A stretch of DNA of 20,107 bases from NCBI GenBank assembly GCA_048885925.1, contig JBHLLG010000051.1, positions 1-20,107 on the forward strand, given 5' to 3'. Below the pieces are notes generated by a model, which was not told the origin of the DNA, ran no database searches, and saw only the letters and a list, made by a program, of their open reading frames with translations. A program made the translations under genes and the position numbers. Origin of the DNA: Candidatus Hermodarchaeota archaeon (lineage in GTDB: Archaea; Asgardarchaeota; Lokiarchaeia; Sigyniarchaeales; SOKP01). Shown here one piece after another: positions 2,350 through 5,269 of the stretch (the first letter of the stretch is position 1; every line of letters begins with the position of its first letter).

Positions 2350-3543
2350 ATGGATGAGGAAGAATTTAGAAAACAGTTTCAAAAAAAATCAGTATTTAGA
2401 CAAGCGAGTTCTCTTGATTTAAGTTATGTACCAGATAAATTATATTGTCGAGATGAAGCTCTGAAAACATTAATTTTCAACTATAGAAGGATTTTAGAGG
2501 AAGAAGAACAACCATCTATAAATTGCTTAATATTAGGAAAAGGTGGTGTGGGGAAGACTTGTACTGCTAGATTTTTTGGAAGAACTTTTAGAACAATAGC
2601 AATTGAAAAAGATGTTAATTTATTTATTGAATATTTTAATTGCATCAATTTCCGCTCAAAAAGCAAGATTATCAGAGAGCTCCTTGCCAAATACCAACAC
2701 GGAAGTGGACGTGGCTTTAGTGATGACGAAAGCTTAAAGCTTATTCTCTCACAATTGATTCGGAAAAATAGCTATATGTTATTAGTAATTGATGAAATTC
2801 ATCTTTTAAAATCAGATGATGTTTTAGCATTTCTAGATATTGCCGAAACATTTGGCCATCAGAATGCGAAATTGTCCTTACTCTTAGTATCACGGAGTAA
2901 AGATTGGATGAATATTGAGACTGAGAGAATATTAAGCAGATTAAATGAAAAAATCATGCTTAAACCGTATACTTTTGATGAAGCTATGCAGATTTTACAA
3001 TATCGTAGTGAGATTGCTTTAAAAGAAAATGTGATTGATGATGAACTTCTTACGATGATCTCACAAATTGTAGTAGATCACAAAAATATGAGACACGGCA
3101 TTGAAATTATTAGAAAAAGTGGTTCATATTGTGATAAGGAGGATCTAGGTCGCATTACAGCAGATATAGTAAGAGAAGCGTCCAATGACGTATATCCTAC
3201 TTTTAGAAATGATATTGTTGATCAATTAAATGATCAAGAGTTGTTAGCATTATACGGAATTGTACGTTCATTAATTAATAAAGATGAACCATTCACTTTA
3301 GTTGACGATGCATTTGAAGAGTATGAAGCAATATGTGAAGCTTATTCACAAGAGCCACATGTTAAAATGAGTTTTAGAAAATATGTACGACAGCTTACTA
3401 TATTAAAAATTGTTACTTCTAAAACAGTAAGAATCGAAGATGCTACACGAGGGAGACATCTTGAGATAACCTTGCTGGATATTCCGGCAAGAAAGTTGCT
3501 CGAATTATTAGAAGAAATTTTTGAAAGAAAGTTCCGTTCTTAA
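2350..3543 (+). CDS. cdc6: Orc1/Cdc6 family AAA+ replication initiator
   Basis: LDLSYVPDKLYCR N-terminal signature, Walker A GKGGVGKT, YFNC, Walker B LLVIDE, RILSRL arginine-finger region, PYT, and a C-terminal winged helix ending in ..TRGR... Confidence 0.92.
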   Translation: MDEEEFRKQFQKKSVFRQASSLDLSYVPDKLYCRDEALKTLIFNYRRILEEEEQPSINCLILGKGGVGKTCTARFFGRTFRTIAIEKDVNLFIEYFNCINFRSKSKIIRELLAKYQHGSGRGFSDDESLKLILSQLIRKNSYMLLVIDEIHLLKSDDVLAFLDIAETFGHQNAKLSLLLVSRSKDWMNIETERILSRLNEKIMLKPYTFDEAMQILQYRSEIALKENVIDDELLTMISQIVVDHKNMRHGIEIIRKSGSYCDKEDLGRITADIVREASNDVYPTFRNDIVDQLNDQELLALYGIVRSLINKDEPFTLVDDAFEEYEAICEAYSQEPHVKMSFRKYVRQLTILKIVTSKTVRIEDATRGRHLEITLLDIPARKLLELLEEIFERKFRS

Positions 3544-3638: not shown

Positions 3639-3898
3639 TTAATAATTTTCTTTGTCAGATTTTGAGGAGGAAAACCATTCTAACCATTCTTTTCGACGAT
3701 TCTTCTGTTTTTGCACTTGATCCACATCTGATATATTCTCATTTCTTACTTTTTGCCAATACATATCTAATTCGTGTCTTGACAGCGACAATCCACAAGA
3801 TTGACATACTACTTGTTTTATGGCTGAATGGTATTTCATAAAGCCTCCGCATTTCAGGTATAGGCAACAAGCCGCTAACTTTCTGGGCATCGAGCCAT
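3639..3898 (-). CDS. Small Zn-ribbon protein, spliced: complement(join(3639..3851,3881..3898)), 76 aa MARCPECGGFMKYHSAIKQVVCQSCG...KEWLEWFSSSKSDKENY
   Basis: ATG at 3898, with SD-like AGGATGGT upstream, reads MARCPES*. Removing 3880-3852 joins CCA GAA to TGC GGA and gives a complete CPEC...CQSC zinc ribbon. The ORF-track start (3890) lacks the first CxxC. Confidence 0.8.
3852..3880 (-). other. Putative 29-nt bulge-helix-bulge (BHB) pre-mRNA intron
   Basis: mRNA fold: exon helix UGC/GCG, central helix CCAG/CUGA (one C.A mismatch), 3-nt bulges AAA (3882-3880) and AAU (3853-3851), intron stem GU/AC, UAG/CUA, GC/GC. Cutting after bulge nt 2 removes exactly 29 nt and restores the frame. Confidence 0.78.
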
Positions 3899-4048
3899 TA
3901 AAATACCATCCTATTTTTCTTTCTGAGTCATTATTGTATTTATATATTATATTAATAGAATTAATTAGTGTTAAAATATTTTTTGACTCAAATTATTAAC
4001 TTTAATTATTTGAATAAATTTAAAAGAATATATTTAATCTGAAAATAA

Positions 4049-5269
4049 ATGAAGTCGGATGTATTTTATTTTACAGCTCGAACTCACACCCATAAACAGA
4101 GTATGAGTAAATTCAAGGGTCCTTTAGCATTAGAAAAGCTAGGAATTCAGAAAAGAGTTAAAAAAGGGGATAACATAGTAATAAAAACACATTTTGGAGC
4201 TTTAGAAAACACTAGATACCTTCGTCCAAGTTATATACGATTTTTATGTGATTATGTAAAGGAGTTGGGAGGTAATCCTTTTGTGGCAGAATCTTGTGGA
4301 TGGGGTGTTCCAGAGAGTATATCAGGAAATCATACAGAATATTCAGGAAGAGCAACAGAAGAAGAATATCTATTAGATGCCCTTCTTCATGGTTTTTCTC
4401 CGGAAACTATGGGAGCTCCTATTTTAATGTTAGATGGAAAGGATGGAACTGATATTGAAGTACAAAAAATTAAAGGAAAGTTATTTACAGAAGTTTTAGT
4501 TGCTGGTCGTTTAAGAGAGTTTGAACATATGATTCTAGCAACTCATTTTAAGGGACATGCTGGTGCTGGTTTTGGAGGAGCAATAAAGAACCTTGGAATT
4601 GGATGTGTGAGTAAAGGAGGTAAGGTTGAAGCACACACAGGTAAGACTTTTGAATTTGATTTTGATAATTGCAATCCAGATTGTATGAATTGTATTAATA
4701 TCTGCCCTACAAATGCTTTAACTAAAGATAATAATGATAAGTTGAAATTTAATGAAGATCAATGTAAATTTTGTTATATGTGTGCGTCAGTATGTAAAGA
4801 TAAAGTAATTCATATTGGGAGTGTTTCACGTGATGAATTCATTACCCAATTGGTTGATAATGCCAAAGGTGTAGTTGATTACTTTGGTAAAGATAAAATC
4901 TTTTATATCAATTATGCTATAGATATAACCTATCAATGTGATTGTTGTGGTGGTACAGATATTCCGTTTGTTCCAGATATTGGGATTTTGGCATCTTTGG
5001 ATCCTGTGGCTGTTGATCAAGCAACTGTAGATCTTGTACATAAATCTTCAATTATACCTCATTCTGTTCTTTCTGAATTAGAGGGTGTTCCTACTAAAGG
5101 ACCTCATGATTGGTTTTCTCATACACCTCGTTTTGATCCCAAGAATGGAGAAATGGATTTCAGTGGGAAAGAATCAAAGCACTGGGAATTACAATTGAAA
5201 TTAGCCGAAGAAATTGGTTTAGGAACAAGAGATTACAATTTAGTTGAAATAAAAATTGAGTTAGATTAA
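4049..5269 (+). CDS. DUF362 family Fe-S protein with an inserted 2x[4Fe-4S] ferredoxin domain
   Basis: IKTHFG, THFKGHAGAGFGGAIKNLGIGC, CxxxCxxCxxxCP and CxxCxxCxxxC, CDC, and DIGILASLDPVAVDQA motifs. Confidence 0.88.
   Translation: MKSDVFYFTARTHTHKQSMSKFKGPLALEKLGIQKRVKKGDNIVIKTHFGALENTRYLRPSYIRFLCDYVKELGGNPFVAESCGWGVPESISGNHTEYSGRATEEEYLLDALLHGFSPETMGAPILMLDGKDGTDIEVQKIKGKLFTEVLVAGRLREFEHMILATHFKGHAGAGFGGAIKNLGIGCVSKGGKVEAHTGKTFEFDFDNCNPDCMNCINICPTNALTKDNNDKLKFNEDQCKFCYMCASVCKDKVIHIGSVSRDEFITQLVDNAKGVVDYFGKDKIFYINYAIDITYQCDCCGGTDIPFVPDIGILASLDPVAVDQATVDLVHKSSIIPHSVLSELEGVPTKGPHDWFSHTPRFDPKNGEMDFSGKESKHWELQLKLAEEIGLGTRDYNLVEIKIELD

Follow-up and report, generated by a model that had tools for sequence, protein, structure and literature searches.

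A probable bulge-helix-bulge intron within the coding sequence of a small zinc-ribbon gene in an Asgard archaeon

A stretch of DNA from Candidatus Hermodarchaeota archaeon (GCA_048885925.1, contig JBHLLG010000051.1, positions 1-20,107), 20,107 nucleotides (nt) long and referred to here as the window, contains on its minus strand a small gene (3898-3639) that very probably encodes a zinc-ribbon protein of 76 residues and whose coding sequence would be interrupted after codon 6 by a 29-nt intron of the bulge-helix-bulge (BHB) type. This interpretation is supported because inserts occur at the same site in orthologous genes, their predicted pairing covaries, exon 1 appears to be under selection, the gene exists as a single copy, and genes for both EndA and RtcB are present in the genome. 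The reading frame opening with ATG (3898-3896) runs up to the codon GAA (3883-3881) and is then followed by AGT TAG, whereas deletion of the 29 nt from 3880 to 3852 brings TGC GGA GGC TTT ATG AAA (from 3851) into frame and gives an exon-2 product of the form CGGFMKY...CQSCGLS...KNRRKEWLEWF... (Table 1). The two readings that an earlier note on this DNA had proposed, MARCPES* if unspliced and a complete CPEC...CQSC ribbon if spliced, were thus confirmed in the sequence. The same note had described the insert as a GC-richer hairpin in AT-rich surroundings, in agreement with a G+C content of 44.8% in the insert vs. 29.4% in the window, and had held that standard gene callers hide the intron by starting at ATG 3890. 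The mechanically listed open reading frame (ORF) 3890..3639 on the minus strand (83 residues, MPRKLAACCLYLKCGG...) does start at this ATG within exon 1, runs through the insert, and is identical to the existing called protein P0001.

Table 1. Features of the zinc-ribbon gene, its predicted intron and the upstream region, in window coordinates.
Feature	Position	Strand	Sequence and remarks
Exon 1, 18-nt micro-exon	3881..3898	-	ATG GCT CGA TGC CCA GAA, coding for M A R C P E, the opening half of the zinc knuckle CPEC; uninterrupted genes begin with a homologous stretch
Predicted intron, 29 nt, phase 0, between codons 6 and 7	3852..3880	-	In-frame TAG at 3877-3875; same-site inserts in orthologues
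Exon 2	3639..3851	-	70 open codons plus stop (3641-3639); 70-100% identical to homologues over residues 1-70
Central helix, 5' strand, CCAG, end of exon 1	3883..3886	-	CCAG in 21 of 22 sequences, CCGG in 1 (G.U pairing kept)
Central helix, 3' strand, CUGA, near intron 3' end	3854..3857	-	Three pairs and a C.A mismatch with 3886-3883
5' bulge, AA↓A	3880..3882	-	Predicted cut between 3881 and 3880
3' bulge, AA↓U	3851..3853	-	Predicted cut between 3852 and 3851
Outer helix, exon-1 strand, UGC	3887..3889	-	Pairs with GCG 3850-3848; 4-8 pairs in relatives
Outer helix, exon-2 strand, GCG	3848..3850	-	Partner of UGC 3889-3887
Intron interior	3858..3879	-	Hairpin with the stem GGC (3873-3871)/GCC (3865-3863), closed off by the inner helix GU/AC (3879-3878 paired to 3859-3858)
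A+T-rich conserved block, about 40 nt, …TTAATTCTATTAATATAATATATAAA…	3939..3978	-	From sequence comparison; present in loci with and without an insert, at a constant distance from ATG 3898

Protein homologues were searched with exon 2 alone as query (window:3642-3851:-), and 30 proteins were retrieved, two of them labelled in their source records as proteins of Promethearchaeota and Lokiarchaeota metagenome-assembled genomes. In nine of the 30, M(A/S)RCPECGG was found at the start or a few residues in, running directly into the exon-2 sequence. The internal MKY start was chosen in 17 of the calls and a later start in one; the other three (the 83-residue call of the window, P0015, and P0025) read through an insert and displayed N-termini unrelated to one another. 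The extensions of P0015 and P0025 (…WPAAQKV… and …WPVAQKV…, respectively) match the +1 frame of ATGGCCCG(C/T)TGCCCAGAAAGT… and therefore point to the same exon 1 followed by an insert of different length. Conservation of the N-terminus MPRKLAACCLYLKC among homologues, which the earlier note had set against its own reading, was looked for and was found in none of the 29 other proteins. Alignment of 38 family sequences showed C4, P5, E6, C7, C22, C25, and W65 to be invariant; the small family to which that note had likened the product, with MxxCPECGG at one end and a Trp-rich basic helix at the other, does exist. As it had also anticipated, homologues align without gaps to M-A-R-C-P-E-C-G-G, both in the nine proteins and in 97 of the 122 loci described below.

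The gene was detected in 53 out of 60 related genomes, and in a single copy in the window's own genome, which is 95% complete. Genomes and metagenomes together provided 122 orthologous loci, 23 of them with an insert, 97 uninterrupted (by direct inspection; an automated ORF filter recovered 96), and two unjudged. Inserts of 28-31 nt were present in 12 of the 30 loci from the same genus (L001-L030), the other 18 being uninterrupted and none unjudged; inserts of 31 nt were present in two of 20 further loci (L031-L050; 18 uninterrupted, none unjudged), and nine inserts appeared among 72 metagenome loci (L053-L124), together with 61 uninterrupted genes and the two unjudged cases, one of them truncated and the other without the second knuckle. 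When L031 and L032 are counted in, 12 of the 32 genus genomes having the gene carried the insert. The 23 insert-bearing loci correspond to 22 distinct sequences, L087 having been dropped as identical to L028, with lengths of 28 nt (three sequences), 29 nt (nine), 31 nt (nine), and 32 nt (one), none of them a multiple of three. All inserts of the genus lie exactly between CCAGAA and TG(C/T)GG, and the 18 uninterrupted genus loci read ATG GCN CGN TGY CCN GAR TGY GGN GGN. Two loci from a different family of the same class (f6), L034 (375-444, minus strand) and L036 (249-318, plus strand), were interrupted by 31 nt at this very codon boundary, between GTG CCY AGG TGC CCA GAA and TGC GCY GGT, with GTG as start codon and M-P-R-C-P-E as the encoded beginning.

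In the layout considered here, the central helix joins the end of exon 1, up to the 5' bulge, to the stretch of intron that precedes the 3' bulge, and cuts are placed between the second and third nt of each bulge. All 22 distinct inserts fitted one relaxed layout of this kind with three or four of the four central pairs. Central helices with CUGA carried the mismatch at the outer end and those with AUGG at the inner end, and the CUGG of L034 paired at all four positions. Folding of 14 genome-derived sequences under the BHB constraint gave 3-4 of four central pairs, 3-8 outer pairs, and 1-3 contiguous pairs in the inner helix (2-3 in 13 of them and one in L036). Pairs were then counted on the 22 distinct sequences anchored on the splice sites, the control being the same count with the 3' partner slid by 1-3 positions: 196 of 220 core cells were paired vs. 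52-88 of 220 with slid partners, and the tool count on the corresponding alignment (A3) gave 90.2% of cells paired vs. 26.5-41.3%. Helix 1 (the outer one) and helix 3 were formed in 97.0 and 97.7% of cells, respectively. Two-sided changes occurred at three of the 12 anchored pairs, a number reached by 2 of 500 shuffles of A3, and the covariation score was reached by none of the 500; the inner pair i1 was G-C in 19 sequences, C-G in two, and A-U in one. A hairpin appeared in all 21 folded interiors (-0.6 to -9.1 kcal/mol), built from at least eight unrelated stem sequences that included GGC/GCC, GGCU/AGCC, GCAUU/AAUGU, UUGCA/UGCAA, and UUUGU/ACAAA, as well as a 7-bp stem that covaries between L034 and L036 (CUAGAAA/UUUCUAG vs. 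CUAGAAG/CUUCUAG). The chance of finding an equally good motif at one fixed site and length was 0.19% (768 of 400,000 random genome positions). We regard the sequence of the window alone as suggestive and the comparative data as compelling. Regarding the structure given in the earlier note, the two 3-nt bulges (AAA and AAU) are present as described, and the cut between their second and third nt agrees with the rule known from cbf5 introns; this geometry holds, with covarying pairs, for all 22 distinct sequences. Its 4-bp CCAG/CUGA helix with one mismatch was accurate as to the pairing (three pairs and C.A), although the motif has to be called relaxed rather than canonical. Its central claim, a 29-nt BHB intron in a small zinc-ribbon gene, is supported by the inserts at the same site with their conserved and covarying pairing.

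Several observations weigh against this interpretation or blur its details. The junction is not unique from the sequence, since three adjacent cut positions yield an identical spliced mRNA; in the window taken alone, other 29-nt deletions a few bases upstream also restore a CxxC knuckle (CLKC and CPKC). The latter junctions were rejected on the ground that CPEC is invariant in the 38 aligned family members, and the junction of the earlier note is singled out for the same reason, only homologues being able to discriminate. The mismatch in the central helix of 21 of the 22 sequences makes the motif a relaxed one, whose cleavage by the host EndA is predicted. Folding energies were poor: the minimum free energy (MFE) of the 76-nt region of the window was no better than that of shuffled sequences (z +0.54; 140 of 200 fold at least as well), RNAalifold run on the 22-sequence A3 gave only a 3-pair hairpin in exon 1 (-2.5 kcal/mol) and did not recover the motif, and the BHB fold coincided with the unconstrained MFE structure in only five of 14 sequences. 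BHB motifs are short and bulged, so that a poor thermodynamic signal is not unusual for them; given these weak energies, the case rests on comparison and not on thermodynamics. For a genome-wide search for further coding introns of this type, the figure of 0.19% per site and length would amount to about a million chance matches if no homology filter were applied. Moreover, most of the conserved pairs lie in coding sequence, where a cause at the protein level is also possible, and clear two-sided covariation is limited to the three anchored pairs and the hairpin. A second EndA-type gene was not detected with Pfam models even at E<=10 in the 95%-complete genome, beta subunits being able to diverge, and such a subunit could be either divergent or absent from the assembly. 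Finally, the internal ATG (MKY) is kept in all 22 insert-bearing genes, and a truncated product of 66 residues starting there is a formal alternative.

This conserved ATG would be expected if a tolerated insertion had destroyed the first knuckle and the protein were now made from MKY (66 residues) or from ATG 3890 (83 residues), exon 1 persisting as a relic or as a seven-codon upstream ORF. The choice of the internal ATG in 17 of the 30 database entries also favors such a decay, and nothing in the RNA data contradicts it: no RNA run was listed for the locus, and four metatranscriptome runs compared with the stretch at 80% likeness gave no contigs, which says nothing either way. We nevertheless consider this explanation improbable. 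Exon 1 of the insert-bearing genus genes varies at third positions only and maintains M-A-R-C-P-E (M-P-R-C-P-E in family f6), and C-G/A-G-F/L is retained in the four codons that separate the insert from the internal ATG; judging from this pattern of synonymous changes, exon 1 is under purifying selection. The Pro codon was CCA in 21 of 22 insert-bearing genes (CCG, which pairs through G.U, in the remaining one) vs. 43 of 89 uninterrupted genes (Fisher p = 2.4e-5, a value overstated because the sequences are related), so that it is fixed as CCA or CCG only where the insert is present. The BHB pairing is kept (90% of cells vs. 26-41% with slid partners) and shows compensatory changes, while the intron interior has diverged beyond recognition. 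As for the product, frame 0 hits a stop in all 22 insert-bearing sequences; upstream extensions of the exon-2 frame are unrelated to one another, that of the 83-residue ORF being unconserved, and two of the 22 sequences have no start there at all. The 83-residue ORF gave no Pfam family at E<=1 vs. 21-28 weak zinc-ribbon matches, starting at the first knuckle, in intact homologues, and the four Cys are all invariant in the family.

Translational recoding, in which the ribosome bypasses the 29 nt or shifts frame, would yield a product identical to the spliced one and leave the RNA intact. A stop codon soon after the putative take-off codon and a hairpin within the gap are in line with it; in phage T4 gene 60, reportedly an example of ribosomal bypassing, matched take-off and landing codons flank the gap. 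Here, however, GAA, the take-off codon, recurs directly ahead of exon 2 in only three of the 22 sequences (the others having AAA, GAU, GAC, AAU, AAG, or AAC), and landing on the GAA inside the gap of the window leads into the wrong frame. With gaps of 28, 29, 31, and 32 nt, the direction of the required shift would differ from gene to gene, the peptides encoded in the gaps are unrelated, and neither bypassing nor frameshifting needs a conserved two-bulge geometry or pairing between exon and intron. We give recoding very little credence. A pseudogene or an artefact of this one assembly would account for the premature stop and for nothing else; as inserts were found at the same codon boundary in 23 independently assembled loci, and the gene is the sole copy of one present in 53 of 60 related genomes, this option is close to negligible.

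Excision as a BHB intron, the reading we prefer, would involve the following steps. In the pre-mRNA, two helices would be built on exon 1 (codons 2-6): the outer one with the beginning of exon 2 as partner, and the central one with the 3' end of the intron, whose interior would fold into a hairpin. The tRNA-splicing endonuclease EndA would cut between the second and third nt of each bulge, that is, after 3881 and after 3852, and the RNA ligase RtcB would join the exons (...TGC CCA GAA to TGC GGA GGC...), thus restoring the CPEC knuckle. Unspliced RNA would yield only MARCPES* or products that are aberrant or truncated at the N-terminus. We infer that cleavage and ligation take place in vivo; as the motif draws on the opening codons of the gene, splicing would have to precede translation initiation or compete with it.

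Candidate enzymes for both steps are encoded in the genome. EndA was represented by one ORF with N and C domains (PF01974, 101.7 bits; PF02778, 33.8 bits) in a 205-codon open frame (contig C22:7684-8169, loci L051/L125), and RtcB was detected with 569.6 bits (contig C12:26362-27669). Asgard archaea are reported to have an (alpha-beta)2 EndA with an L1 loop and broad specificity (PMC5829648). ARAGORN, with introns allowed, predicted 31 tRNA genes in the genome, of which 19 had introns (9-146 nt; one call of 1335 nt is doubtful), although its intron calls are unreliable in detail. Several introns at the canonical tRNA position showed the same 3-of-4 central helix after optimising over small shifts, and the tRNA set of this organism is probably heavily interrupted and under-detected. 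In contrast to the crenarchaeal gene discussed below, cbf5 was uninterrupted in this genome, TruB_N lying in a 342-codon open frame without stops.

The distribution of the insert within the genus was compared with a tree of the adjacent Cdc6 gene (29 rows, L017 being left out because the gene is absent from its contig), and at least seven changes between presence and absence were needed on this tree. So patchy a distribution implies recurrent events, whether precise loss, gain, or both. Among the genus inserts, the ends are alike (AGU… …ACCUGAAN) and the interiors are not; one old intron with repeated precise loss fits the data, gains also being possible. The introns of family f6 (L034 and L036) have ends that differ from the genus type; they may be very old, or they may have been gained independently, the codons at this site already supplying the exon half of the motif. 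A mobile element was also considered and rejected: the intron, searched with and without its flanks against its own genome by blastn-short, gave only chance matches of 10-15 nt, so that it is not multi-copy and no further copy was detected.

Two further observations were made on particular loci. In three distant homologues, L048 (genome G055) and L047 and L049 (genomes G040 and G038, respectively), the interval from the in-frame stop upstream to the codon of the first Cys has no ATG, GTG, or TTG, as in the stretch ...TGA TTT AGA ATA CCA GTT TGT CCA GAA...; a rare start codon may be used there, or there may be one more unrecognised interruption. In the intron of L029 (1687-1754, minus strand), the 3' end is duplicated internally, ACCUGAAA occurring twice, and the duplicate could act as an alternative 3' splice site.

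The encoded protein of 76 residues resembled known zinc ribbons at levels below curated cut-offs. The best score with Pfam PF08271 (TFIIB-type zinc ribbon) was 22.2 bits (cut-off 29), and NCBIfam NF047723 (TFS4; TransFacS4) reached 20.6 (cut-off 120). A profile search of the PDB gave only generic zinc-finger or zinc-ribbon matches (E>=9e-4). The AlphaFold model (pLDDT 75.8) displayed a zinc ribbon at residues 2-29 followed by two helices. In Foldseek there was no match at E<=0.001, the best one (29 columns, rmsd 1.0, E 0.11) being to 7oqy_Y, the TFS4 of an archaeal RNA polymerase complex, at its N-terminal ribbon. The nearest Atlas clusters, of about 70 residues and from several archaeal phyla, are automatically named 'putative TFIIB-type domain-containing protein' and serve as leads only. 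These results show a generic four-Cys zinc-ribbon fold, which we call TFIIB/TFS-like, membership in either family being putative.

The zinc-ribbon gene is flanked by an Orc1/Cdc6 gene (2350-3543, plus strand) and a DUF362/ferredoxin gene (4049-5269, plus strand). The conserved block upstream of its start (Table 1) was near-identical in most loci of the genus (L002-L030) and far better kept than the intergenic DNA around it. A promoter/TATA region, shared with or facing the divergent DUF362 gene, is its probable identity. Over the window, Rfam gave no matches at gathering thresholds and ARAGORN found no tRNA.

In the literature searched, which comprised full texts and left supplementary files and subscription journals outside its scope, no BHB intron was described for any protein-coding gene of Asgard archaea. 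In 2020, a paper on Haloferax stated that, besides a case in a 5' untranslated region (UTR), the cbf5 intron was the only one in archaeal mRNAs (PMC7714728). The intron described here would thus be the first in a coding region of Asgard archaea, and would add a second archaeal protein-gene family to crenarchaeal cbf5. If this holds true, Crenarchaeota are not alone in splicing mRNAs in the manner of tRNAs. The 22 distinct variants, with at least seven presence/absence changes in one genus, would form a natural series for the study of intron gain and precise loss, and the gene would exemplify a coding sequence that itself supplies the exon half of a splice motif. The case also exposes a systematic annotation error, the public calls of one gene giving three kinds of wrong N-terminus. 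It is relevant to the debate on how introns arose, as regards the lineage most closely related to eukaryotes; by itself it establishes no link to spliceosomal introns.

In eukaryotes, HAC1/XBP1 mRNA undergoes an unconventional cytoplasmic splicing in which the IRE1 endonuclease acts at twin stem-loops and a tRNA-type ligase (RtcB in animals) joins the exons. The likeness would consist in a short non-spliceosomal mRNA intron, a dedicated endonuclease together with a tRNA-type ligase, and a frame change that gates the functional protein. The differences are that IRE1 takes the place of EndA/TSEN, that twin stem-loops are used, and that a regulatory role in our case is speculation. Lokiarchaeia are tRNA-intron-rich relatives of eukaryotes, and one may imagine, though we think it rather doubtful, that the present intron is the tip of a wider layer of protein genes spliced by EndA and RtcB in this group, and that it gates a small RNA-polymerase-type zinc-ribbon factor through splicing that competes with translation initiation, functionally like HAC1/XBP1. 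With the BHB introns of Asgard tRNA genes, it would share the presumed EndA plus ligase machinery, the size range, the relaxed motifs, an exon that supplies half of the motif, and recurrent gains and losses; in a preprint on these tRNA introns the word 'mRNA' occurs 0 times (bioRxiv 10.64898/2026.10.13.758758). Here, in contrast, the host is a messenger RNA, and codons make up the exon's half of the motif.

Two archaeal mRNAs offer closer parallels. The HVO_1309 mRNA of Haloferax volcanii contains a BHB intron in its 5' UTR (Schwarz et al. 2020, PMC7714728) and is an EndA substrate outside tRNA and rRNA, as the present mRNA would be; removal of the intron appears to be needed for efficient expression. 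That intron, from a euryarchaeon, lies in an untranslated leader and leaves the reading frame unaltered. The cbf5 pre-mRNA of Crenarchaeota (Desulfurococcales and Sulfolobales) has a BHB intron for which gain and loss have been described, and its cuts fall between the second and third bulge nt (Yokobori et al. 2009, PMC2738675). Splicing of cbf5 was demonstrated by cDNA and EndA assays, whereas that of the present gene is predicted from sequence comparison. In both systems, a short intron within the coding sequence has a relaxed BHB-like motif and follows the same cut rule; it interrupts a functionally essential motif, so that splicing would be needed for function; and it has a patchy distribution, lineage-specific loss, and a record of misleading gene prediction. 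Unlike cbf5, which encodes a pseudouridine synthase, the host in this work is a small zinc-ribbon protein of Lokiarchaeia/Promethearchaeota (Asgard), its exon 1 is only 18 nt long so that the motif is built from the very start of the ORF, and presence and absence of the intron have changed at least seven times within one genus.

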